A stretch of 64,000 nt of DNA. Origin: a virus. A program made the translations under genes and the position numbers. How positions within the stretch are numbered: position 1 is the first letter of the stretch; each line of letters begins with the position of its first letter. The notes under the pieces were generated by a model that saw only the letters and a program-made list of their open reading frames with translations, had not been told where the DNA came from and made no database searches. The stretch lies in IMG/VR virus record IMGVR_UViG_3300042446_001683; one strand, given 5' to 3'. Below are positions 32,543 to 64,000 of this stretch, piece by piece.

Positions 32543-32595
32543 TATTTATGATAAAATGTTTGGCTTCGCCAAATTTTTTTATTATATTTAGCAAG

Positions 32596-43015: not shown

Positions 43016-43039
43016 CCCATATTTATAATAAATTTTGTA

Positions 43040-46000
43040 ATGAGTAATATTCATAAATTAATAGAACATTTAGTTAACAATTGGTCAAACAATTTATCTG
43101 AGGCATTAGCTCCAAGAGTTAAGCAACAGTTAATGGATAAATTTAAGCAAGAAGCAGATGATTTTAACATTACAATCTCAGATACAAATTTAAGTGACTA
43201 TATTGACTATTTTGATACTCGATTAAAAAATAATCCTAAAGTAACTGAAAAAGATTTAGCTAAGTACCCATTAAAATCATTAATTAAACTTGTATCAGCT
43301 TATAAAGGTTCAAGTAAAGAAGATGATGATGAAGATGTATCAAATATACCAGACGTTGTTTATAATGAAAATGGTCTTATAATTTATAGTGGTCATAATG
43401 AAGAAAACTGTTTAAAGTTTGGTAGAGGTGAGCAATGGTGTATCACTAAAGGATCATTTGGTAATTATCGCTATGATTCAAATAGAAAAAATCCAACATT
43501 TTATTTAGTAAAAGATACTAACTTACCAAATAGTGATAGAAAAAGTTTCTTTGTTGTTGTAGTAGGTAGTGATAATACTTACAAAGTATCAGATAGATCA
43601 AACAATGATGTTGGTGGTAGAGGAACAGAATGGAACAGATGGGAACCATGGTCATTTGTTGAACAAAATTTCCCATCAGTTCAAGGTTTAGAAAGAATAT
43701 TTAGATACATTCCTGTTAGTAAAGTTGAGCTATCAACTCGTCAATATGCTAATCAAGCTATGACTGTTGAAGAATGGGAAGTAGCACCACCAGATTTTAA
43801 AGAACGATATCTTATTATTAGAAAAGGAAAAACACTTTTTTCTGATATATCTAATGAAAAGTTTGTAAAAACTATTCTCCCAGACAATCAAGATATGGCT
43901 ACAGTAGTAGCTAAAAACTATGGGATGATAGATTTAAATACTTTATTACAAGAATTTGATTCTTTCTCTAACCAAAATCAAAAATCAATCATAGCTAACG
44001 CTCGAAGATTTACAAAAGTATCTACAGAAACTTTAAAATCACGTGGTATTCCTTTTTCAGCTAAAAAAGCAGTAGTTAATGGTGGATTACTTGATGTTCC
44101 TAATAGTGAAAGATACTATGTTTCTAATGATGATAAGGCTATAATTAAATTAAAATTTAATGGTGATGATGTATCAATGGGTTTATTTACTGAGAAAGAT
44201 ACATATCCTAATGTTAAAATAAACACTCGTACAAGTAGTATATTAAAAAGTTTACCTAGATTTGATGAGATGCCTTTTGATGCTTTATTAAAGTTAACAA
44301 AAGATAATCTTTTACCTAAAGACACTGTTGATAAAGTAATTGAAAAATCAAAAGAAGAAGACTCTAAATCAGCTATCGTAACAGCTAATACTGATGAAGG
44401 CGAGATAGTGTTAGATACAAATACTTTTAAAGCATATAAACCTGAAAATGGAGAATATACACCAGTACCATTTGAAGATGACTCTGTTCAAAGTATATTA
44501 AAATCAGACACAGTAGGTAGTGGTATTCAAGATGGTATTATAAGGATGATTTCAAAATTTGATAGCATCCCTTCATCAATACCTATGTCAACTATATCCT
44601 CAATAGTGAAACAAACTCCATCAGAAAAAAGAATAGTAAGAAAAGGAGATGATAATTTCATAATAATACCTAGTAGTACAGGGAATGAACTTAATTTATG
44701 GAATACAAATAATCCTTTAGATAGAAGTTCTGTAGCATTTAATTATAGAGAAGATGGAAGATTTGGTAGTGGAAAAATGGCAAATCAAGAAATATGGTCT
44801 GAATATTTTAATTATTTAAGATCTCAAAATTTAGCTTATGATTCTACTCAACTCCTTCCTTTAGCTAGTTCTCAATATTACGCTGGAGCAAAATTCTTAG
44901 CAGCTAATCCTCCTTTAACAGCTGATAACACATACAAACCTGCTCAATATGAAGGAACATGGTATATTATAAATCAAAATAATCCATCTGAGAGTAGAAA
45001 ACTTAGTCCACAAACAGGTAATTTACTTAGAGCTAATCTTACCCCAGCTAAAGTAGCTATAATACTAGGAACAAGACCACCTGCGGGAGCAGTTAGAGGT
45101 ACTAGAACACCTAGAACAGCAACCGCAGCAGCGGCTACACCACCTACAACTACTGGCCAAGTAAATGATGCTGTACGACAAGCAATTGTTGGAGCAGGTT
45201 TAGAACAAGGATTTACTGCCTTACCAGCTCCACTTAGAAGTAGAATATTATCAGGTACATTAGTAGCTAATGACAATGGAGTAGCAGGTCGTAATAGAGC
45301 ATTAGGAGACAGAGGACGAGTTACTAGAATTATATCTGCTGGTCAAAGTAGAATGTATATCATTCGTTTAGCTAGTGGTACTATGATAGGACAAGCATCA
45401 TTCCAACCTGAGGCAAGACACTTTATTATAACCGCTACTAGCGCGTTTAATATGGGTAGAGTAGGTAACTTTATAGATGCTTTAACAGCTCGTAACTTAC
45501 GTGAAACAGAAGACATATTACGAATAGCAATGGGAGCAGCAACACCAGAAGAACTAGAGGAAATTAAATCTAAAGTTAAAACTAAACCTTATAAAGATTT
45601 AGAAGTAACTAATGAACATATTATTCGTGAGTTTGATGAGAATATTGATCCTATTGAATTAAAATGGCATCGTGATAATGAAAACCGAATAGTAGAAATT
45701 GTAGGTAAAACTGATTGGAAAATACAATTAGAAAATCAACTACCAATTTCTATGAATCAACCTATTACAATACCTAAAGGTGAATGGCATCGTGTTATTA
45801 AAGGTAATGGTAAGTTAACTTTAAAGATAATTAAAGAAGAATCTACTCAATACAATATTGAAGGATTATTATTAACTAACACTGAAGATCGTCCACAAAA
45901 AGATATATTATCTGATATACGCTCATTACCTGGTATAACAATTGTATCAAGTAAAGATTATGACTTATCAGGTGAATCATCTGCATTTAGCAATCCTAAC

Positions 46001-46153
46001 TACTATACAATAATTAAAATGAAAGTAGATCCACATCCATATCCTAATGGATTTAAAGATGAAGATTTACAACAATTATTTACTGACATTAGAGCAATTA
46101 AAGGTGTTAGAAATTTCAAATTAAATAAATCTGTAGAGAAAAAAACTGTATAA
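43040..46153 (+). CDS. large multidomain (polyvalent-like) protein with cupin domain
   Basis: GRGEQWCIT domain; WHRD..WHRVIKG cupin; domains bounded by LSE, LRE and IKEE. Confidence 0.65.
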   Translation: MSNIHKLIEHLVNNWSNNLSEALAPRVKQQLMDKFKQEADDFNITISDTNLSDYIDYFDTRLKNNPKVTEKDLAKYPLKSLIKLVSAYKGSSKEDDDEDVSNIPDVVYNENGLIIYSGHNEENCLKFGRGEQWCITKGSFGNYRYDSNRKNPTFYLVKDTNLPNSDRKSFFVVVVGSDNTYKVSDRSNNDVGGRGTEWNRWEPWSFVEQNFPSVQGLERIFRYIPVSKVELSTRQYANQAMTVEEWEVAPPDFKERYLIIRKGKTLFSDISNEKFVKTILPDNQDMATVVAKNYGMIDLNTLLQEFDSFSNQNQKSIIANARRFTKVSTETLKSRGIPFSAKKAVVNGGLLDVPNSERYYVSNDDKAIIKLKFNGDDVSMGLFTEKDTYPNVKINTRTSSILKSLPRFDEMPFDALLKLTKDNLLPKDTVDKVIEKSKEEDSKSAIVTANTDEGEIVLDTNTFKAYKPENGEYTPVPFEDDSVQSILKSDTVGSGIQDGIIRMISKFDSIPSSIPMSTISSIVKQTPSEKRIVRKGDDNFIIIPSSTGNELNLWNTNNPLDRSSVAFNYREDGRFGSGKMANQEIWSEYFNYLRSQNLAYDSTQLLPLASSQYYAGAKFLAANPPLTADNTYKPAQYEGTWYIINQNNPSESRKLSPQTGNLLRANLTPAKVAIILGTRPPAGAVRGTRTPRTATAAAATPPTTTGQVNDAVRQAIVGAGLEQGFTALPAPLRSRILSGTLVANDNGVAGRNRALGDRGRVTRIISAGQSRMYIIRLASGTMIGQASFQPEARHFIITATSAFNMGRVGNFIDALTARNLRETEDILRIAMGAATPEELEEIKSKVKTKPYKDLEVTNEHIIREFDENIDPIELKWHRDNENRIVEIVGKTDWKIQLENQLPISMNQPITIPKGEWHRVIKGNGKLTLKIIKEESTQYNIEGLLLTNTEDRPQKDILSDIRSLPGITIVSSKDYDLSGESSAFSNPNYYTIIKMKVDPHPYPNGFKDEDLQQLFTDIRAIKGVRNFKLNKSVEKKTV

Positions 46154-46154
46154 A

Positions 46155-46757
46155 ATGAACAAAGAATTTTTAAAAATGCAAAAAACGGCTGGTTTAATAA
46201 CTGAAAGCCAATATGCTACTCTAATAGTAGAATCTGAAGAGCAAGAAATAGATCAAGCATTATCATCAGGAGTTAACGCTTTACAAGATTTAAGTTCTTT
46301 AGATGAAATTGAAGAACAACCTCTTGAAGAATCAGTTGTAGGTTTAGTAATTAGTGGATTATTAGCCGCTCCAAAATTAATAGAATGGTTAGGAAAAGGT
46401 ATAAGTATTATAACTAGACCATTTGTTGGTAAAGATGAAAATACTGTAGCCAAAAATATTATTAAATTTGGCCATAAATGGGAAAAATTTTATATAAAAG
46501 CTATAATAGCTGCTATTAAATTTACTAAATTTGGTAAACAATTATGGATGTTACCTGATAATAAAATAGATGAACAAAAATTAGTATCACTAGCTAAAAT
46601 ATTATATGGTGTAATTCTAAGTATAGCAGCTGGTAACGCTTTAAAAACTGTATTAAGTAGTTCTCATCCTATCTTAACAGCTATTGAAAGTGCTTTAGGT
46701 GGGGTTAAAGCGATAGAAATAGCTCAAATAGCATCTAAAGTTAAAGGACAAATTTGA
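46155..46757 (+). CDS. putative head-packaged membrane-type protein
   Basis: FLKMQKTAGLITE leader; hydrophobic helices. Confidence 0.6.
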   Translation: MNKEFLKMQKTAGLITESQYATLIVESEEQEIDQALSSGVNALQDLSSLDEIEEQPLEESVVGLVISGLLAAPKLIEWLGKGISIITRPFVGKDENTVAKNIIKFGHKWEKFYIKAIIAAIKFTKFGKQLWMLPDNKIDEQKLVSLAKILYGVILSIAAGNALKTVLSSSHPILTAIESALGGVKAIEIAQIASKVKGQI

Positions 46758-46792
46758 TAAAAACACACATATTTATAATAAAATAAAACAAA

Positions 46793-48244
46793 ATGGAAAT
46801 TAACAGACTACGTTCAATCATAAGAGAATCAATTAGCAACAATCTTAAAGAGATTGAAGATGTTGCAGAAAACGCAGCAATGGAAGCTAAATTAAATGCT
46901 TACACTGAAGCTATTGATAAAGTAAACAAAAAAATTGAAATGGCTGAAAGCCTTGAAGAAATGCAAGAATTAGTAGATCCTACTAAATTAAATGAACTTA
47001 AAAAACATTTAAAAACTCTTGAAAAATCTAAAGAAAAATTAGAAAAGGTTAAAGCTAAGAAAAACAAAGGTAAAGAAGTAGTAACTGACGAACCAGTTGA
47101 AGAAGCTGAAGTTGAAGAAGGAAGTGCAATGGATAGTATGGATAATGCTATAGTTCCTGAAATGGATTACACAATGGAGGAAGAAGAAGCAATAAATGAA
47201 TCATTCCTTAAAATGCAAAAATTAGCAGGTGTAATTACTGAAGCTCAATACAATCAAAAAAAAAGATTAATTGAGAATCAATTAGAAGAAATATCATTAT
47301 CTGGAGCTTTAAATAAAGTTAAAGATAAGATAGCAAGTTTACCTGCTTTTGATAAACTTATTAATTCTGTTGTGACTAAAATGTCTGAAAAAGACAAAGA
47401 AAACTTTAAAGCTAAATTTAATTTAGCTGAAGCTAAAGGTGCTCCTTCTTTAGAAGATATAATGACTAAAGTAGATGCTATCAACCTAGATAAAGATGCT
47501 AAAACTCCTGAAGATTTAAAAGAAGGAGCTGAAGAAACAGTAGACAAAATAGCATACGAAGTTGTAAGATTAGTTAAAAATTTAACTGGTCTAAACCTAT
47601 TAGCATTAGGTGGTCTTCCATTTGGATTTGTTATTAACTATTTAATAGATATGAGTCCATGGAGTTTCGGAGCATTCGTAGGCCCAGTTATTAGTTTAGT
47701 AGCATCATTAATAATCCATGGTATATCCAGAAAAATTTTAGGAATATCTCCAGATGATGAACTAATTGGAGAATCTGAAGACCAACAAGAAGCACCAACA
47801 CCAGAAAAAATAGCAAAAGATATTGCTAATAATATAGATCAATTAAAATCAAATCCTAAATTAAAAGCTATAGCTGATAAGATAGCTGCTGACCCAAAAG
47901 CAACAGAAGAATTAAATAAAATATTAGCTAAATTTAATATTTCTTTAAATGAAGGAGATATTGATGTTAATCCTCAAGATGTTTATAAAATAGCTTTAGC
48001 TTTTGCTAAAAAAGCAAAAACATTAGGTGAAGAAGAAGGTAATTATGGAGCATTATTTTTAGGTGGTTTATTTGGAGGAGGTGCTTTAGCTCGTTATATA
48101 GCTAGTCTTGGAGATATTATAACCCCAGAAATGAAAATGTTAGGATATTCTCCGTCTCATATGACAGCTGCTGTCCTTGGAGGTTTAGCAGCCGCTGCTT
48201 TATTAATGATAGGCCAGTATATATATGACAATTACAAAAAATAA
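46793..48244 (+). CDS. putative head-packaged multi-segment protein with TM-like helices
   Basis: LRSIIRE leader; FLKMQKLAGVITE; Gly/Ala-rich hydrophobic helices. Confidence 0.6.
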   Translation: MEINRLRSIIRESISNNLKEIEDVAENAAMEAKLNAYTEAIDKVNKKIEMAESLEEMQELVDPTKLNELKKHLKTLEKSKEKLEKVKAKKNKGKEVVTDEPVEEAEVEEGSAMDSMDNAIVPEMDYTMEEEEAINESFLKMQKLAGVITEAQYNQKKRLIENQLEEISLSGALNKVKDKIASLPAFDKLINSVVTKMSEKDKENFKAKFNLAEAKGAPSLEDIMTKVDAINLDKDAKTPEDLKEGAEETVDKIAYEVVRLVKNLTGLNLLALGGLPFGFVINYLIDMSPWSFGAFVGPVISLVASLIIHGISRKILGISPDDELIGESEDQQEAPTPEKIAKDIANNIDQLKSNPKLKAIADKIAADPKATEELNKILAKFNISLNEGDIDVNPQDVYKIALAFAKKAKTLGEEEGNYGALFLGGLFGGGALARYIASLGDIITPEMKMLGYSPSHMTAAVLGGLAAAALLMIGQYIYDNYKK

Positions 48245-48288: not shown

Positions 48289-48328
48289 CTAAGGAGCTGT
48301 GGCCCACCCAAAAGGTGGGCCACCTTAG
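48289..48328 (+). terminator. strong GC hairpin ending the late block
   Basis: GTGGCCCACC-CAAAA-GGTGGGCCAC with CTAAG/CTTAG extension. Confidence 0.55.
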
Positions 48329-48365
48329 TTTGGCTTTTAAAATAAATTTATTATATTAATATTAT

Positions 48366-49646: not shown

Positions 49647-49726
49647 AGACTATACATAACATTTGACATGAAGGGTTTGGCTTTGCCGGACCCTTTTGTT
49701 ATATTTAGCTATAATTATAAATACTT

Positions 49727-50920: not shown

Positions 50921-50958
50921 AATACAAATGTTATATTTAATTAAAATAAATAAAGGTT

Positions 50959-53989: not shown

Positions 53990-54044
53990 CACTTGTTTGG
54001 CTATTAGGGATAAAGATGTTATATTTAATAAATAAATTAATAAC

Positions 54045-55937: not shown

Positions 55938-57509
55938 ATGAGTCAAGACATAAAACAAATAATTCGTGAAGAATACCTGAAGTGCGCCTCTAATCCGGCG
56001 CACTTTATGCGTAAATACTGCTATATTCAACACCCACAACGTGGTAGAGTATTATTTAACCTATACCCATTTCAAGATAAAGTACTTAACTTATGGAAAG
56101 ATAATCCATACGATATAATACTTAAATCAAGACAATTAGGTATATCTACTCTAGTAGCAGGTTACTCTTTATGGTTAATGTTATTCCATAAGGATAAAAA
56201 TATCTTATGTATAGCAACTAAACAAGAAACAGCTAAAAACATGGTGACGAAAGTTAAATTCATGTTTGAAAACTTACCTTCTTGGTTAAAAATAACAGCT
56301 GAGGAAAATAATAAATTAACATTACGACTAAGTAATGGCTCCCAGGTTAAAGCAGTATCAGCAGCTGGTGATGCAGGTCGATCTGAAGCAGTTTCTTTGC
56401 TGATTATAGATGAGGCCGCGTTTATTGATGGTATTGGTGAGATTTGGGCATCTGCTCAACAAACCTTAGCAACAGGTGGTGGAGCAATTGTGTTATCTAC
56501 CCCATATGGTACTGGTAATTGGTTCCATCAAACATGGGTTAAAGCAGAAGCAGGTGAAAACCAATTTTTACCTATTAAATTACCATGGTATGTTCATCCT
56601 GAGCGAGATGAGAATTGGAGGAAACGACAAGATGAATTATTAGGTGATCCTAGAATGGCGGCTCAAGAATGTGACTGTGATTTTAGTACATCTGGTGATG
56701 TAGTATTTTATCCTGAGTATATAGACTTTATTGCTCAAACTTATATTAAGGATCCCTTGGAGAGGCGCGGAGTCGATCATAACTTATGGATATGGGAACC
56801 AGCAGATTATAGTCGTAGTTATATAGTTGTAGCAGACGTTGCTCGAGGAGATGGAAAAGATTTCTCAGCATTTCATATTATAGATGTTGAAACAAATACT
56901 CAAGTAGGTGAATATAAAGGACAATTATCACCTAGAGAATTTGGTTATTTGTTAGTAGCAATAGCCACAGAGTATAATGAAGCACTATTAGTTGTTGAAA
57001 ATGCTAATATAGGATGGTCAACAATTGAAGCAGTTCAAGAAAGAGGATATAGAAATTTATACCATTCTCCAAAAACTGAAGCTACAAACGCTGATTCTTA
57101 TTTAGATAAGTATGATGATCCATCAAAAATGACACCTGGATTTACAATGTCTTTAAAAACAAGACCACTTGTAATTAGTAAATTTAGAGAGTATATTGGA
57201 GATAAAAGTGTTATCATACAATCTAAACGATTATTAGAAGAAATGAAAGTGTTTATTTGGAGAAACGGCAGACCAGAAGCACAATCAGGATACAATGATG
57301 ATTTAGTTATGAGTTTTGGAACAGCAATGTACATAAGAGACACAGCTCTTAAATTTAAAACACAAGGAATGGATTTAACTCGTGCAATGCTTAGTAACAT
57401 TACTGTAGTTAAAACAAACCAACAAGGTATTTACGGAACAACATTCAACAACAATCCATACAAAATGGATTTTGGACATGGATCTGAAGACATTAGTTGG
57501 TTATTATAA
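55938..57509 (+). CDS. terL: terminase large subunit (T4 gp17-like)
   Basis: LYPFQ, KSRQLGIST, LIIDEAAF, STPYG, ADVARG, DDLVMS. Confidence 0.95.
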   Translation: MSQDIKQIIREEYLKCASNPAHFMRKYCYIQHPQRGRVLFNLYPFQDKVLNLWKDNPYDIILKSRQLGISTLVAGYSLWLMLFHKDKNILCIATKQETAKNMVTKVKFMFENLPSWLKITAEENNKLTLRLSNGSQVKAVSAAGDAGRSEAVSLLIIDEAAFIDGIGEIWASAQQTLATGGGAIVLSTPYGTGNWFHQTWVKAEAGENQFLPIKLPWYVHPERDENWRKRQDELLGDPRMAAQECDCDFSTSGDVVFYPEYIDFIAQTYIKDPLERRGVDHNLWIWEPADYSRSYIVVADVARGDGKDFSAFHIIDVETNTQVGEYKGQLSPREFGYLLVAIATEYNEALLVVENANIGWSTIEAVQERGYRNLYHSPKTEATNADSYLDKYDDPSKMTPGFTMSLKTRPLVISKFREYIGDKSVIIQSKRLLEEMKVFIWRNGRPEAQSGYNDDLVMSFGTAMYIRDTALKFKTQGMDLTRAMLSNITVVKTNQQGIYGTTFNNNPYKMDFGHGSEDISWLL

Positions 57510-57535
57510 TATTTATATACATAATTTAATATAAA

Positions 57536-59419
57536 ATGGCAGATACAAGTGTATTTACACGACTAAGACGATTATTCTCTACTGATGTTATCATCAGAAA
57601 TGCTGGGGGTAACGAACTTAAAGTAATGGATGTTAACAGTATTCAAGCTACTGGAGAATATCAAACTAACTCACTAATAGACCGTTATAGTCGTATTTAC
57701 TCTAACAATAGTACATCACTTTATGGTGCTCAATTAAATCTTAATTGGAAATATCTACGTACTCAAATCTATTCTGATTATGATGCAATGGATACTGACG
57801 CTATTATCGCGTCTGCTTTGGATATAATCGCGGACGAATGTACCCTTAAGAATGATATGGGTGAAGTACTTCAAATTAAGAGTAGCGACGAAGATATACA
57901 AAAAATACTATATAATTTATTCTATGATGTATTAAACATTGAATTTAATTTATGGTCTTGGATTAGACAAATGTGTAAGTATGGTGATTTTTTCTTAAAA
58001 TTAGAAATAGCTGAAAAATTTGGTGTATATAATGTTATACCATATACCGCTTATCATATTGCTCGTGAAGAAAATTACGACCCTAAAAATCCAGCTGAAG
58101 TAAGATTTGCATTTAGCGCTGATGGATTCTCAGGCGGAACAGGATTTTATGGAGTAACAGGACAAGGTAATTATAGTTCAAATAAACAGGACAATAAGAT
58201 ATACTTTGACAACTATGAAATGGCTCACTTCAGATTAATTACTGATGTAAACTATTTACCTTATGGTCGTTCTTATTTAGAACCAGCTCGTAAGTTATTT
58301 AAACAATACATTTTGATGGAAGATGCAATGTTAATCCATCGTATTTGTCGCGCCCCAGAAAAACGTATTTTTTATATTAATGTTGGTTCTATTCCTCCAA
58401 ATGAAGTAGAAAACTTCATGCAGAAGACTATCAACACAATGAAGAAAACTCCATTAGTTGATCCTCAAACAGGTGAATATAATTTAAAGTATAACCAACA
58501 AAATATGTTGGAAGACTTTTACATACCAGTTAGAGGTAATGATTCATCTACTAAGATTGAACCTACTAAAGGTATGGATTATAATGGTATTGAAGACGTA
58601 GCGTACCTAAGAGACAAGTTATTTGCTGCTTTAAAAGTACCTAAAGCATTTATGGGTTATGAAAAAGACCTAACCGGTAAAGCAACATTAGCAGCAGAAG
58701 ATATTCGTTTCGCTCGTACAATTGATCGCATTCAACGTATTATATTATCTGAGTTAAATAAAATAGCATTAGTTCACTTATATACTCAAGGGTATAGAAA
58801 CGAAGGTTTAACAAACTTTGAATTAGATTTAACTACTCCTTCTATCATTTATGATCAAGAAAGAATAGCATTAATGAAAGAAAAAGTAGATTTAGCTCGT
58901 AATATTATTGAAACTAAGATATTACCTACTGATTGGATTTATGATAATGTATTCCACTTAAGTCAAGATCAATTTGATGAATATCGTGATTTAATTGCTG
59001 AGGATCAAAAACGTATCTTTAGAATGAAACAAATTGAAAACGAAGGCAATGACCCATTAGAATCAGGTAAATCATATGGTACACCTCATGATTTAGCCGC
59101 GTTATATGGTTCAGGTCGTTACAATAGTGGGGTACCTGATGGATATGGTGATGATCTTACTTTAGGTCGCCCTAAAGAAAAAGCATCTACTATTGGTACT
59201 CAAGACAATTACTTAGGAGTTGATAGATTAGGTAGTAAAGGTATGAAGAAAGGTGATGATACTGGTGAAGATAAATCATTAAGAAATAATTTTAAAGGTG
59301 GATCACCATTAGCATTAGAAAATCTCCAAAAGAAAACACTACTTGAATCAATGGATAAAAAACTTGTATTTAAAAAAGACGATTCTTCGTTATTAGATGA
59401 ATCTCAAATACGAGAATAA
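57536..59419 (+). CDS. gp20: portal protein (T4 gp20-like)
   Basis: MEDAMLIHRICRAPEKRIFYINVG, EDFYIPVRG, ALKVPK. Confidence 0.95.
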   Translation: MADTSVFTRLRRLFSTDVIIRNAGGNELKVMDVNSIQATGEYQTNSLIDRYSRIYSNNSTSLYGAQLNLNWKYLRTQIYSDYDAMDTDAIIASALDIIADECTLKNDMGEVLQIKSSDEDIQKILYNLFYDVLNIEFNLWSWIRQMCKYGDFFLKLEIAEKFGVYNVIPYTAYHIAREENYDPKNPAEVRFAFSADGFSGGTGFYGVTGQGNYSSNKQDNKIYFDNYEMAHFRLITDVNYLPYGRSYLEPARKLFKQYILMEDAMLIHRICRAPEKRIFYINVGSIPPNEVENFMQKTINTMKKTPLVDPQTGEYNLKYNQQNMLEDFYIPVRGNDSSTKIEPTKGMDYNGIEDVAYLRDKLFAALKVPKAFMGYEKDLTGKATLAAEDIRFARTIDRIQRIILSELNKIALVHLYTQGYRNEGLTNFELDLTTPSIIYDQERIALMKEKVDLARNIIETKILPTDWIYDNVFHLSQDQFDEYRDLIAEDQKRIFRMKQIENEGNDPLESGKSYGTPHDLAALYGSGRYNSGVPDGYGDDLTLGRPKEKASTIGTQDNYLGVDRLGSKGMKKGDDTGEDKSLRNNFKGGSPLALENLQKKTLLESMDKKLVFKKDDSSLLDESQIRE

Positions 59420-59456
59420 CAACTTCATATATATTTATAGATAAATTATTGCTAAA

Positions 59457-60311
59457 GTGAATATAAAACACTCGAAGTACAAAAATACTGGAATCCTTTT
59501 TGAATTGTTAGTAAGACAAATCACAGCTGATACCTTATCTGGCAAGGAATCACCAGCAACAACAATTCTTAAGAAATACTTTACTAAAACTGAATTAGGT
59601 AAAGAATACAAGTTATACGAAAATTTCTTTAAGTATACTAACATTAGTGAAGCTAAAGCCAATATGGTTTTAAATACGCTTATTGAAAGTTCAAAACACT
59701 TAAATCGCTCAACTCTTAAGAGACAAAAGTATAATCTTATTAAGGAGATTAAAAATCATTATAATTTAGAGGATTTCTTTAAAATGAAATTACCTAATTA
59801 TAAAGCTCAAGCTTCATTATTTACTTTATTAGAAGTATATAATAGTGAAAACTTATCTAATCCAACTCAAATTATTGAGAATAAGACAGCACTTTTAGAA
59901 TACTTAACACAATCTACTATAGATAAAAAAGAAGTTAAAAACAGTATCTTAGAAGAATTTAAACATCAAGATAAAGATATTCGTATATTAACATATCGAG
60001 TATTACTTGAAAAGTTTAATGATAAGTATGCTGATTTAAATGAAAATCAAAAGAATACTTTAAAAGAATTTATTAACAGTATTGATAGTACTTCAAAATT
60101 AAAAGAATTCTACAATACTAAAATAAATGAAATTAAAAGTACATTAGGTACTTTAAATAAAAAAATTACTGATAAAGCTATTCAAATTAAAATAAATGAA
60201 GTTATAAACATTCTACCTAGTTTAACTAAGAATGAAAAAGTTAATGATGATCATTTAATTAATCTCTTACAATACTATGCGTTAGTAGAAGAGTTAGAAT
60301 CAGCAAAATGA
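59457..60311 (+). CDS. conserved head-assembly-region protein (GTG start)
   Basis: KHSKYKNTGILFELL; late promoter at 59432. Confidence 0.7.
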   Translation: MNIKHSKYKNTGILFELLVRQITADTLSGKESPATTILKKYFTKTELGKEYKLYENFFKYTNISEAKANMVLNTLIESSKHLNRSTLKRQKYNLIKEIKNHYNLEDFFKMKLPNYKAQASLFTLLEVYNSENLSNPTQIIENKTALLEYLTQSTIDKKEVKNSILEEFKHQDKDIRILTYRVLLEKFNDKYADLNENQKNTLKEFINSIDSTSKLKEFYNTKINEIKSTLGTLNKKITDKAIQIKINEVINILPSLTKNEKVNDDHLINLLQYYALVEELESAK

Positions 60312-60778
60312 GTAAACGAGATAAAATAAAAGATTTAGTCGTTAAACGCTTAAAAGAAGAAAGCGCTACAGGTACTGGAGCGTCTTTCACAGCTGGTGAA
60401 GGAATAAATTACGCCACACCAGTAGCAGGTAAAGCTAAAAATTACTATTATAAATTAGGCTTTAAACCTGTTAAAACTACAAAACCTAAAAGTTTTGATA
60501 TAAAAAAATTATGGGAAGAAGAAACTCCTGAATTTGATGTTGAATCATTTATAGTTTCATTACCAACAGAAGACGAAAAACTAAAAGAATATATAGCAGG
60601 ACGTTTAGGTGACTTTAACCTACTATCAGGAAAATTAAAAGAACTTATAACATTAATTAGAGACGCTAAAAAAGAAACAATAGCATCATATAAACAAAAT
60701 CCTCAATATAGAGCAGTATATGGTACTGATTTAGCAGTTTCGTTAGTAGACAATTTGATAAAATTATTTAAAAAATAA
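60308..60778 (+). CDS. putative prohead core/internal protein
   Basis: RLKEE leader; located between portal and protease. Confidence 0.6.
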   Translation: MSKRDKIKDLVVKRLKEESATGTGASFTAGEGINYATPVAGKAKNYYYKLGFKPVKTTKPKSFDIKKLWEEETPEFDVESFIVSLPTEDEKLKEYIAGRLGDFNLLSGKLKELITLIRDAKKETIASYKQNPQYRAVYGTDLAVSLVDNLIKLFKK

Positions 60779-60780
60779 AC

Positions 60781-61716
60781 ATGGAACAAACACTTCAATC
60801 ACAATATAACCTTATTAAAGAAGGTAAAGGTAACAAAGCAGTATTTTTAAAATCTGCTTATCGTTTATTCCCAGACATGTTATCACCTGTTAACACATTC
60901 GAGGATACTGTTAAAATTCTTAAAAACAGAAGCATTATCAGTGAAAATGTAGGTGGATTAGTTACAACTGGTAAAAAACAAGATTGGCATGCTATTTTTA
61001 ATGAGAACATGACTGCTCTTAAAGAAGAAAAAGAAGCTAAAGCTGAAGAAAAAGAAACTACTAAAGAAGTTACAGACATGGCTACTCGTGGATATGATTA
61101 TAAAGACGAGAAAAACTATGATAACATATTTGGTCAAGAATTCTTAAAAGGATACTACACTGAAATGAAAGATCCTAAAAACTCTGATAAAAATGTTGAA
61201 GAATTAAAAGCAATTGTAGCTAAAAACTTAGCTAAAGATATTAATTTTTATGTTAAAGATGGTCAATTTGGAATTAAAGGAGTAGGATATACAACTGAAG
61301 CACCTGGGTTAGGTACACCTAAGGAACCTAAAGGTAAATTTAAATCATCAGGATATGGTGACTTAAAAGAATCAGTATTACGTTCTCAAATTCAACTTCT
61401 AATTAAAGAAGTATTAAATGAACTCCCTCCTTTAGAAGCAGGTGAGATGGGAGTATATGAAGGTGAACCAGTATTTATTATAGCTGTGTCTATGCATGCT
61501 AAAACAAATAAAGACGAACCTCAACCATTTTCATACACTATTGAAAAAAATGGTAAAATATACAGAGAAGTTCCTATTAGTGCTGTCACACCAGCATCAT
61601 TAGCTGAAGCTGAAGATAAAAAAGAAGATAAAGAAGAAGCTAAAAAGAAAAAAGAAGACCTTAAAAAGTTAGATGCAGAGTGGAAGAAAAAATTAAAAAC
61701 TGGTGATATAGACTAA
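60781..61716 (+). CDS. putative prohead core/internal protein
   Basis: multiple IKE, ISE, LKE, LNE and LAE sites. Confidence 0.6.
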   Translation: MEQTLQSQYNLIKEGKGNKAVFLKSAYRLFPDMLSPVNTFEDTVKILKNRSIISENVGGLVTTGKKQDWHAIFNENMTALKEEKEAKAEEKETTKEVTDMATRGYDYKDEKNYDNIFGQEFLKGYYTEMKDPKNSDKNVEELKAIVAKNLAKDINFYVKDGQFGIKGVGYTTEAPGLGTPKEPKGKFKSSGYGDLKESVLRSQIQLLIKEVLNELPPLEAGEMGVYEGEPVFIIAVSMHAKTNKDEPQPFSYTIEKNGKIYREVPISAVTPASLAEAEDKKEDKEEAKKKKEDLKKLDAEWKKKLKTGDID

Positions 61717-61717
61717 T

Positions 61718-62326
61718 ATGAAACAAGTATTAATAGAAACCCAATTTTTTACTGCTAAACCTTTAAAATTAGTTGAAGGTACTGTACCAACAAGTAATCC
61801 ACTTGTTGAAGGTATCTTAGCTACTTGTGAGGTTAAAAATGGTAACGGTCGTTACTATTCAAGAGAATTGTGGGAACGTGAGATGGATAAATATATGGAA
61901 AATGTTAATGCTAATAGAGCATTAGGTGAATTAGACCACCCAGACTCATCTATTATTAACTTAAAAAATGTATCTCATAATATCAAGAAAATTTGGTGGG
62001 ACGGAGATAATGTAATGGGTGCTATTGAACTATTACCTACACCATCAGGTAATATCTTAAGAGCATTATTTGAAAACAAAATACCAGTAGGTGTATCATC
62101 ACGTGGTATGGGTTCATTAAAACAAATGGGTGATTTAATGGAAGTACAAGATGATTTTGAACTATTATGTTGGGATTTTGTATCTACACCTTCTAACCCA
62201 GGATCATACATGAAAGAAAAAGGTATGATGAATGAATCTAAAAATATCCAACATAACAAATATATTAAAGCAAATTCTATTATCACTGAAATACTTTGTG
62301 CTAATGGAACATGCCCAATATTTTAA
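61718..62326 (+). CDS. gp21: prohead protease (T4 gp21-like)
   Basis: KNGNGRYY, ALGELDHP, VSH, GVSSRGMGS, DFVSTPS. Confidence 0.95.
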   Translation: MKQVLIETQFFTAKPLKLVEGTVPTSNPLVEGILATCEVKNGNGRYYSRELWEREMDKYMENVNANRALGELDHPDSSIINLKNVSHNIKKIWWDGDNVMGAIELLPTPSGNILRALFENKIPVGVSSRGMGSLKQMGDLMEVQDDFELLCWDFVSTPSNPGSYMKEKGMMNESKNIQHNKYIKANSIITEILCANGTCPIF

Positions 62327-62354
62327 CCCCTCCTAGAATAGTATTTTAGGACTG

Positions 62355-62385
62355 ATGTCTCTCGAAAGAGAGACATTTCTTTTTT
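62355..62385 (+). terminator. intrinsic terminator
   Basis: ATGTCTCTC-GAAA-GAGAGACAT-TTCTTTTTT. Confidence 0.85.
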
Positions 62386-62526
62386 ATAAAAGGTGACTTT
62401 ACATAAATCCATATATATGTATGCTCAAATATGCTACCACAATCTACTATGTAGCATCTATTATTAAACAATCTATTACGTTTCTTAATAAACGTATTTC
62501 CAAAACAATTTAATTGAGGACAAAAA

Positions 62527-63588
62527 ATGAACAGAGAAATGCTCAAAGAAGCAATCGCTGAGGCTAAGACCATTAAGGAAACTGCTATCGCGAATGCAAA
62601 AGCTGCTCTTGAAGAAGCATTCACTCCACAACTTACAGCTATGTTTGCTGAAAGATTAAACGAGGAAGATGCTGAAAAAGAGTTAGAAGAAAACTACAGT
62701 GTGGAAGAAGAAGGATTAGAGGAAACTTTTAATCTAGATGAAATCCTAGCTGAGTTAGAAATGACTGACGAAGCTGATGAAACAGTTTCTGAAGATGACA
62801 TGGGAATAGATGAAGATCTAATGCTCGAAGAAATGTCAGATGAAGAAATTGAAGAGTTAGTAATGAAAGTTATTGATGACATGATCCAAACTGGTAAGCT
62901 TATGCCTGGAGAAGGTGAAGAAGAAGAAGGTGAAGAAGACTTAGAGGACGTTGAAGATTTAGACGGTGAAGAAGTTGAAATCGAAGACGAAGAAATTGAA
63001 CTTGATGAACTTTTAAACGAACTTCTTGATGAAGAAAAAGTATCTGAGACATCATTTGCAGATCCTCAAACTTTACAATTAGTAGCCCAAGCCGCAGATT
63101 TTTTAAACATCAGTAAGGACGCTGTAATGGCAATAGTAGCAGGTTTGCCTGCGACAGTAGCAGCAGCTGGATTCTTAAGAGGTTTATTAAGAGGCAAAAA
63201 GGAAGCTACTAAAGAAGAAGTTGAAAAAACAGCTGACACTAAAGAAATGGAAGAAACTATCGCTGAGTTAAGAAATGAACTAAACGAAGTTAATCTATTA
63301 AATGCTAAGTTACTTTACACTAACAAAATCTTTAAAGCTAAGAATCTTACCGAATCAGAAAAAATAAAGGTTTTAAACACGTTTGACAAAGCAGAAACTG
63401 TAAAAGAAGTTAAATTAGTATTCGAAACATTGACTGAATCTTTCAAAGCAGTAGCTAAGAAAGCACCAATTAAAGAATCACTAGGATCAGCTTCTAGAAG
63501 TATCGCTCCAGCTCAAACAAAACAACCAATTATTGAAGTAAACGATGCATTTGCTCGTATGCAAAGATTAGCTGGTATTAAAAAATAA
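62527..63588 (+). CDS. gp22: prohead scaffolding/core protein (T4 gp22 analogue)
   Basis: very acidic coiled coil between protease and MCP; C-terminal RMQRLAGIKK. Confidence 0.8.
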   Translation: MNREMLKEAIAEAKTIKETAIANAKAALEEAFTPQLTAMFAERLNEEDAEKELEENYSVEEEGLEETFNLDEILAELEMTDEADETVSEDDMGIDEDLMLEEMSDEEIEELVMKVIDDMIQTGKLMPGEGEEEEGEEDLEDVEDLDGEEVEIEDEEIELDELLNELLDEEKVSETSFADPQTLQLVAQAADFLNISKDAVMAIVAGLPATVAAAGFLRGLLRGKKEATKEEVEKTADTKEMEETIAELRNELNEVNLLNAKLLYTNKIFKAKNLTESEKIKVLNTFDKAETVKEVKLVFETLTESFKAVAKKAPIKESLGSASRSIAPAQTKQPIIEVNDAFARMQRLAGIKK

Positions 63589-63619
63589 AATTAATAAAAA
63601 CAAAAACCCGATTTAAAAA

Positions 63620-64000
63620 ATGGAAACAATTCAATCATTAGTCGAGTCCGCAAATCCATGGAAGTCACTTCAAGGTGACGCTGCTAGATTAGCAAACAAA
63701 TGGAGCAAAACCGGCCTTTTGGAAGGTTTAGGCGAAGACGTAAACAAAAACAACATGGCTTTGATGTTGGAAAACCAAGCAAAGCAATTAGTAATTGAAA
63801 CCTCACAAGTTAACGGAGGATCAGCTACATTCACTTCTGGTACATCTGGTGAGAACTGGGCTGGAATCGCATTACCATTAGTACGTAAGGTATTTGGTCA
63901 AATCGCAGCGAAAGAATTCGTTAGCGTTCAACCAATGAACTTACCTTCTGGTCTTGTATTCTTCTTAGATTTCCAATATGGTACTACTAAGAACCCATTC
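63620..64000 (+). CDS. gp23: major capsid protein (T4 gp23-like), runs off the window end
   Basis: KWSKTGLLEG..LENQ..LPLVRKVF..VSVQPMNLPSGLVFFLDF. Confidence 0.95.
   Translation, partial: METIQSLVESANPWKSLQGDAARLANKWSKTGLLEGLGEDVNKNNMALMLENQAKQLVIETSQVNGGSATFTSGTSGENWAGIALPLVRKVFGQIAAKEFVSVQPMNLPSGLVFFLDFQYGTTKNPF

Follow-up and report, generated by a model that had tools for sequence, protein, structure and literature searches.

A portable leader peptide matching the scaffold tail as a candidate capsid-targeting propeptide in T4-type lake phages

Introduction

Proteins destined for the prohead of phage T4 are addressed by a capsid-targeting sequence (CTS), which is taken off afterwards; related phages differ in their sets of cargo (PMC9026906, PMC3012670). 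The internal proteins of T4 are diverse and have the CTS alone in common (PMC3012670, PMC9026906). They carry N-terminal propeptides of 10–19 residues with a terminal L/I-X-E site, after the glutamate of which the prohead protease gp21 cuts, and an affinity for the core has been ascribed to the CTS (PMC9026906). Reuse of a scaffold peptide has been described for 80alpha: the last 16 residues of its scaffold, an 11-residue helix and a 5-residue hook, bind the N-arm of the capsid protein, and CpmB of SaPI1 reuses the C-terminal motif of that scaffold (R-I-I-K) at the same site of the procapsid (PMC5644958). Here, we analyze a stretch of viral DNA of 64,000 nucleotides (IMG/VR virus record IMGVR_UViG_3300042446_001683; "the window" always denotes this whole stretch), in which the C-terminal peptide of the scaffold recurs in two further proteins of 200 and 483 amino acids (aa), in both cases followed by a predicted protease site. 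On the 200-aa protein, it forms part of a 17-residue leader, which we consider, with a probability of roughly 0.7, to be a removable capsid-targeting propeptide that mimics the scaffold tail and is the counterpart of the T4 CTS in function.

Results

The core F-x-[KR]-M-Q-[KR]-x-A-G-[ILV] is present in three copies in the six-frame translation of the window, and a six-frame scan with M-Q-x-[LT]-A-G-[LIV] returned the same three sites and no others. One copy (46155..46205, + strand) is the 17-residue leader of the 200-aa open reading frame (ORF) at 46155-46757; the core occupies residues 5-14, and the leader ends in I-T-E, with Glu17 as the predicted P1 residue. Another lies inside the 483-aa ORF at 46793-48244 (residues 134-150; 47192..47242, + strand), with the core at residues 138-147, the end at I-T-E150, and the extra sites L-I-E and Q-L-E within 15 residues downstream. 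The remaining copy is the C-terminal tail of a 353-aa ORF (its last 12 residues; 63550..63585, + strand), where 2-3 residues follow the core before the stop codon. A leader-only profile, built from the leaders of other genomes and excluding the window's own copies, matched the two non-scaffold copies with E-values of 1e-16 and 7e-15 and, third-best of 1401 window frames, the scaffold tail (sequence E 0.019); it also picked the scaffold tail in a complete relative (E 0.008). Because a profile derived from the leaders of other genomes recovers both window copies and the scaffold tail, the three-copy match is not due to chance. An earlier reading made from the sequence only had placed the same motif at these three positions, which the six-frame scan and the leader-only profile confirm, and an I-T-E site after each non-scaffold copy, which is indeed found in both.

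The 353-aa ORF (62527..63588, + strand) encodes an acidic protein that is, by its place between the prohead protease and the capsid protein and by homology, the scaffold, the counterpart of T4 gp22. Its N- and C-terminal regions resemble gp22, and homologues occupy the same place in Flavobacterium phage vB_FspM_immuto (hereafter immuto), the nearest cultured relative (portal identity 63%), and in Microcystis phage Mel-JY01, which, together with an uncultured phage of 484 kb (LR756508), is next in portal identity (52 and 43%, respectively). The scaffold contains 21 [LI]-x-E sites, compared with 11.6 expected (z 3.4). The adjacent protease (61718..62326, + strand) belongs to the T4 gp21 family (Peptidase_S77, E 8.8e-29; phrog_207, E 2e-56). 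Only the start of the gp23-type major capsid protein lies in the window (63620..64000, + strand; Pfam Gp23, E 5.5e-10, match from residue 78); comparison with the N-terminus of T4 gp23 points to a V-I-E near residue 60 as the predicted end of its propeptide.

All 44 scaffold homologues from viral contigs, including diverged ones that had been found without the tail pattern, end in the core plus 1–6 residues. The tail with the core is likewise terminal in immuto and Mel-JY01, and the 484-kb phage has a near-identical one, with Asp replacing Gly. By sequence comparison, T4 gp22 has no such C-terminal tail, and a comparison with 50,697 phage records showed a scaffold with a comparable C-terminal region only in immuto, Mel-JY01, and the 484-kb phage. 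Neither Pfam nor PHROGs gave a match for the 200-aa protein, the 483-aa protein, or the scaffold, and sequence searches of the PDB with the scaffold and the leader profile returned only low-complexity or chance matches.

The leader is carried by many otherwise dissimilar proteins. A locus search with the 200-aa protein as the query yielded 53 loci, most of which matched only its first 20–30 residues; the 70 distinct leader proteins from these loci fell into 36 clusters without detectable mutual similarity, often with two to four such genes per contig. As this search had been seeded with the first eight residues of the window's own protein, a census with a 30-column leader profile was run against 1.84 billion cluster representatives. 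It retrieved 1507 clusters at E ≤ 1e-3, of which 131 reached E ≤ 1e-10 (counted at 50% identity, fragments included), and the 137 leader proteins taken from it formed 56 clusters. Of the best 150 of the 1507 clusters, 136 had the match at the N-terminus, 10 had it no more than 35 residues from the called start, and 4 had it internally; the median protein length was 130 aa, and I-T-E followed the leader core in 144. A second [LIVM]-x-E was found within 16 residues downstream in 119 of 130 leader proteins, compared with 18 of 130 in a control window of equal width located 25–40 residues further on. Searching relatives with a profile for an M-Q-x-L-A-G-type motif, as the sequence-only reading had proposed, recovered the scaffold tail of a complete relative as well as many leader proteins. 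In the literature searched, no paper on the M-Q-x-L-A-G motif was found with any of several spellings, and no virion proteomics was found in literature naming immuto or Mel-JY01.

Residues Q9, A12, G13, and E17 were invariant in 60 leader proteins. The third codon positions of the leader vary synonymously (the commonest base reaching a frequency of 0.54 at F5, 0.46 at L6, 0.44 at L11, and 0.50 at L14); because synonymous sites vary while these four residues are fixed, the leader is selected at the protein level. Genome-wide counts were taken on immuto and complete relatives: immuto has two leader genes (gp083 and gp230) in addition to the scaffold tail, and four to five profile matches each were obtained in two complete relatives (161–163 kb) and in two that are 78–82% complete. 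Of these four, the three examined for Peptidase_S77 (G001-G003) all have it; the complete genome G004 was left out. At E ≤ 1, the leader profile (A3) had no match in the complete T4 genome. The place of the motif within the protein varies: it is C-terminal in the scaffold and in stand-alone N-terminal modules of the kind described below, internal in fusions, and terminal on both sides in proteins of 805 and 874 aa (L105:1105-3519 of relative G002; also P0077), where I-T-E is absent; these double-motif proteins have no homologue in the window. Being found at the N-terminus, inside, and at the C-terminus of proteins, the motif therefore behaves as a short docking peptide would.

In the 200-aa protein, the leader is followed by the rest of the predicted propeptide (46206..46331, + strand), which comprises I-V-E26, an acidic disordered linker, and L-E-E59 directly before the conserved domain, and by the predicted mature domain (46332..46757, + strand), a bundle of helices, two of which are moderately hydrophobic. 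All 26 aligned orthologues have E59. An AlphaFold2 model (predicted local distance difference test score [pLDDT] 70.8; predicted template modelling score [pTM] 0.63) shows a nine-residue helix at residues 3-11, coil at 12-16, the acidic linker disordered at 29-57 (pLDDT <50), and the bundle at 60-197. Kyte-Doolittle means over 19 residues reach at least 1.6 at residues 61-79 and 143-161; these peaks are borderline (1.65–1.72) and broken by charged residues. The mature domain had no match in Pfam, PHROG, the PDB, BFVD, or the Atlas; the ESM Atlas returned only unnamed viral clusters, below 0.9. Fold relatives of the model were sought with Foldseek against the PDB, in BFVD, and with VIA-align (wide), and none was significant, the best (Z 6) being generic helical hairpins. 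One short lake-metagenome contig joins position 46153 to 46759, exactly without the 200-aa gene (depth 2.9, five to seven mismatches); this contig, which skips 46154-46758, probably comes from a relative without the 200-aa cassette.

Homologues of the 200-aa protein do not all carry the same leader. Nineteen of 45 have the M-Q-x-L-A-G leader or a diverged form of it, 21 have another one that starts with M-D-x-F-D-[LY]-[KR] and ends in N-x-L-L-x-E, and five, the immuto orthologue gp095 being of this kind, have an amphipathic leader that ends in [LV]-x-E. In all 45, [LV]-x-E directly precedes the conserved domain. Because unrelated leaders that share only the terminal cleavage site replace each other on the same mature protein, the three are best explained as equivalent targeting propeptides, and leader swapping of this kind is the strongest comparative argument for reading the leader as a putative targeting propeptide. 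The M-D-x-F-D leader is also present on immuto gp092 and gp069 (L001:11807-12355 and L001:33242-33469); in the window, none was found. Amphipathic leaders ending in [LI]-x-E or L-L-x-E, of the kind that takes the place of the M-Q-x-L-A-G leader on orthologues of the 200-aa protein, are present at many ORF starts in the window (7389, 16676, 32596, 35026, 37170, 40930, 41576, 42031, 43040, 46793, and 55407); ORF 40930 is closely similar over its first 13 residues to the N-terminus of the T4 core protein gp67.

The 483-aa protein appears to be composed of modules around its internal copy of the motif. The N-module (46793..47191, + strand) resembles a small scaffold and is made up of an amphipathic leader at the N-terminus, a coiled coil, and an acidic stretch. 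Residues 1-160 are kept as a unit in L003 (91% identity), L036, L040, L047, L019, and L004, with a downstream part that varies, and in L040 (155 aa) and L104 (175 aa) the N-module forms a protein by itself, the motif lying close to the C-terminus. Behind the motif follows a middle cargo module (47243..47773, + strand), which has two hydrophobic helices (residues 267-308) and ends in I-G-E (47765-47773); this boundary aligns with the leader end in homologues without the middle module. The C-terminal cargo module (C-module; 47774..48244, + strand) is homologous to immuto gp092 and consists of a small helical subdomain, a helix with an invariant G-G-x-x-G-G-G, and, at the C-terminus, a hydrophobic helix with basic residues after it (AlphaFold2 pLDDT 74, pTM 0.68). 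Kyte-Doolittle 19-residue means of at least 1.6 were calculated for residues 267-285, 290-308, and 456-474 of the whole protein. Stand-alone homologues of the C-module (173–185 aa) carry the M-Q-x-L-A-G leader directly, and one homologue consists of N-module, leader, and C-module; immuto gp092 has the M-D-x-F-D leader instead. Taken together, the 483-aa protein is read as a putative polyprotein cut at its module boundaries. For the model of the C-module, Foldseek against the PDB returned nothing significant; weak rows for colicin A, BAX, and apolipophorin (E ~5, template modelling score ~0.2) do not count as evidence. In RNA libraries, only a few short contigs fall on the 483-aa ORF; with DNA carry-over as a possible source, they give no evidence of expression, and the uncovered parts are equally uninformative.

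The 200-aa ORF and the 483-aa ORF both lie downstream of a sequence word, ATATTTATA, which we take to resemble the T4 late promoter. It is located at 46769..46777 (+ strand) upstream of the 483-aa ORF and at 43019-43027 upstream of ORF 43040, the operon of which holds the 200-aa ORF. The window contains 17 copies, all on the + (gene) strand, compared with 7.9 expected on both strands; apart from the two just named, they are found just upstream of portal, baseplate, tail, and other late ORFs. Many leader genes of relatives also have a ATATTTATA-type word upstream. A second promoter-like pattern, distinct from ATATTTATA, consists of TTTGGCT followed ~17–19 bases on by TTATATTTA, and is present at 32550-32595, 48300-48365, 49660-49726, 50925-50958, and 53990-54044, upstream of ORFs 32596, 48366, 49727, 50959, and 54045, respectively.

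The wider context is that of a T4-type phage from lakes. The region 55938-64000 is a T4-type head module, in the order large terminase (PF03237), portal (Portal_T4, E 3.6e-69), three conserved ORFs, protease, scaffold, and capsid protein, and the window stretch recurs in lake-water metagenomes from many studies. ORF 59457-60311, located between portal and protease, is conserved, with counterparts in Mel-JY01 and immuto (gp073). This ORF probably encodes a core protein subject to heavy processing, because it has the largest [LI]-x-E excess in the window (17 sites, 5.8 expected from shuffles, z 5.7); the protease (z 4.0), ORF 40930 (z 4.5), and ORF 41576 (z 4.8) are also enriched in such sites over shuffles. 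The large window ORFs of the 43040 cluster are fusions of modules that are found alone elsewhere: a cupin-like segment near the C-terminus of the 1037-aa ORF 43040-46153 is a separate 85-aa gene, gp098, in immuto (L001:9830-10087).

Discussion

In the mechanism we propose, the tag would bring its cargo to the docking position of the scaffold tail in the assembling prohead. This position could lie on the inner face of the capsid protein, as in 80alpha, or on the core formed by the scaffold, as in the case of the T4 CTS; either fits the data. After assembly, the gp21-type protease would cut after the glutamate of I-T-E and after the nearby second [LIVM]-x-E, and these cuts would free the mature cargo inside the head. 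The 200-aa protein would lose about 59 residues by this route, and the 483-aa protein would represent a scaffold-like module, the tag, and two cargo modules split at I-G-E.

Several observations weigh against this interpretation. We infer packaging and cleavage from sequence, and the receptor and ejection as well. The seeding of the first locus search inflates N-terminal look-alikes, and the profile census corrects this bias only partly, being built from those loci. Mel-JY01 and the 484-kb phage possess the scaffold tail and gave no match to the leader profile, so that the tail alone does not imply a cargo system. Some N-terminal copies reside on large proteins without an I-T-E site. The hydrophobic moment of the predicted motif helix was not above that of shuffles in four of five copies, a clear excess being seen only in Mel-JY01. 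Finally, the tagged cargo is mostly small and acidic (median net charge −10, 83% negative; in this sample, P0046-P0195, one large cluster dominates and the proteins are not independent), whereas the internal proteins of T4 are basic.

The sequence-only reading had gone further and tied the motif to membrane-type proteins: the tag would specifically dock membrane-active ejection peptides on the inner wall of the capsid. In this version, hydrophobic helices released by cutting from the two window proteins would enter the host membrane at infection. Hydrophobic Gly/Ala-rich helices are indeed present in both window proteins, the C-module has its invariant glycine-rich helix and a C-terminal hydrophobic helix with basic residues behind it, and both AlphaFold2 models are helical bundles able to bury such helices. 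The L-x-E sites listed between the helices, however, are not above chance in either protein: compared with shuffles, the 200-aa protein has 7 [LI]-x-E sites versus 4.2 expected (z 1.6), and the 483-aa protein 13 versus 10.1 (z 1.1). Particular sites are conserved nonetheless, and these conserved glutamates lie at module boundaries and not between each pair of helices. Furthermore, a hydrophobic segment (19-residue mean ≥1.6) was found in only 12 of the 70 and 12 of the 137 tagged cargo proteins (~9–17%), most of the cargo being soluble-looking and acidic; the hydropathy peaks of the 200-aa protein are borderline, and the fold searches gave no significant match to a pore-former. When 60 cargo proteins were compared with Pfam and PHROGs, only two single matches to domains of unknown function and three marginal PHROG matches were obtained. 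What stands of the earlier proposal of a second targeting signal is a portable signal copied from the scaffold tail with a protease site behind it; the general link to membrane-type proteins does not, and we regard dedicated docking of membrane-active peptides as improbable. A role at the membrane after ejection is possible for the two window proteins themselves.

A closer relative of the favoured interpretation retains capsid targeting and makes the scaffold core, instead of the capsid protein, the receptor, through tail-to-tail or tail-to-scaffold contacts. In its favour, T4 propeptides are directed to the core, and gp22 and the internal proteins purify together (PMC9026906); the 483-aa protein has an N-module resembling a second small scaffold with the same tail, and a protein such as that of 805 aa, with the tail at both ends, would suit cross-linking within the core. 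Such a receptor is less likely than not; conserved scaffold tails contact the capsid protein in 80alpha (solved structure) and P22 (genetics) (PMC5644958), and the present data fit both receptors equally. That the motif is instead a docking site for the prohead protease, or a degron, which marks substrates for cleavage and not for incorporation, would agree with its position next to conserved glutamate sites and on the scaffold, a protein that T4-type proteases degrade (PMC9026906). Yet the scaffold has its motif at the extreme end and no cleavage site behind it, cargo orthologues bear two unrelated leaders sharing only the terminal [LIV]-x-E, and a T4-type protease needs just L/I-X-E (PMC9026906), all of which makes this role quite unlikely. 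Least credible by far is that the leader is the by-product of a DNA cassette (promoter, ribosome site, and first codons) serving gene shuffling or translation, with a functionless peptide. Many leader genes do have in common the word resembling a late promoter and conserved sequence ahead of the ATG, and metagenome contigs often match the leader only and then diverge. Against this, synonymous sites vary and residues are fixed, the peptide is conserved internally and C-terminally with no promoter nearby, and the match to the scaffold tail is one at the protein level.

Beyond the window, we tentatively suggest, at somewhat less than even odds, that the tag is a sequence-readable label copied from the capsid-docking tail of the scaffold, that it exposes more than 1500 families of injected proteins, and that the other two leaders mimic other parts of the prohead core, resulting in a multi-tag code. 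If this is true, any ORF that starts with the tag would be loaded into the head and injected, and the injected families would be small, mostly acidic proteins, that is, candidate anti-defence or host take-over factors in a widespread aquatic clade of T4-type phages. Injected phage proteins are hard to learn without proteomics on cultured phage; provided that the tag marks head cargo, a simple profile search lists those of abundant, mostly uncultured lake and sea phages. A large and diverse cargo list is what is expected for an arms-race arsenal like that of the T4 internal proteins. The match between tag and scaffold tail suggests how such tags may originate, namely by copying the docking peptide of the scaffold, and would provide a concrete peptide–receptor pair for the T4-type head, in which little is known of the contacts between scaffold and shell. 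Foreign proteins might also be loaded into capsids with the help of a short natural tag that brings its own release site.

Among described systems, the 80alpha/SaPI1 pair shares with the window a scaffold whose extreme C-terminal peptide is conserved and reused by a second protein. In 80alpha, this peptide is a short helix with a few hook residues and a hydrophobic and basic end, to which the modelled helix and coil of the leader may correspond. In contrast, the second user there is the size-redirecting scaffold of a satellite and not cargo, the motif stays at the C-terminus in every case and no protease takes it off, and capsid binding has been shown by cryo-electron microscopy and genetics. 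Encapsulins load diverse cargo through short N- or C-terminal peptides, for which the HK97-fold shell has a binding pocket on its inner face (PMC8229669); the peptide of Thermotoga maritima has small hydrophobic residues, Gly, and basic residues at its end, much as the scaffold tail does. As encapsulins have no protease step, scaffold, or DNA, this likeness is one of style, and no homology is claimed. In phiKZ and SPN3US, many head-internal proteins are cut after Glu by a gp21-related protease, and their propeptides have redundant sites (PMC9026906), but these propeptides are long, do not form one conserved tag, and are cut at S/A-X-E.

The nearest likeness is to the CTS of T4 (IPI, IPII, IPIII, and Alt): both are short N-terminal propeptides (putative in the window) on unrelated small proteins with an L/I-X-E end, and the window phage has a protease of the same family, a gp22-like scaffold, and a gp23-like capsid protein. 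The two have no sequence relation, and the window tag copies a scaffold tail that is absent from T4 gp22. Further differences are that a tag of the window type can also be internal or C-terminal, is nearly always accompanied by a second predicted cleavage site, and is borne by mostly acidic cargo, that the cargo set is very large, and that at least three kinds of leader are exchanged on the same mature protein. The proposed function is thus of the known T4 CTS kind; what is new is the sequence of the tag, its being a copy of the scaffold tail, its independence of position, the tandem site, and the variety of leaders.

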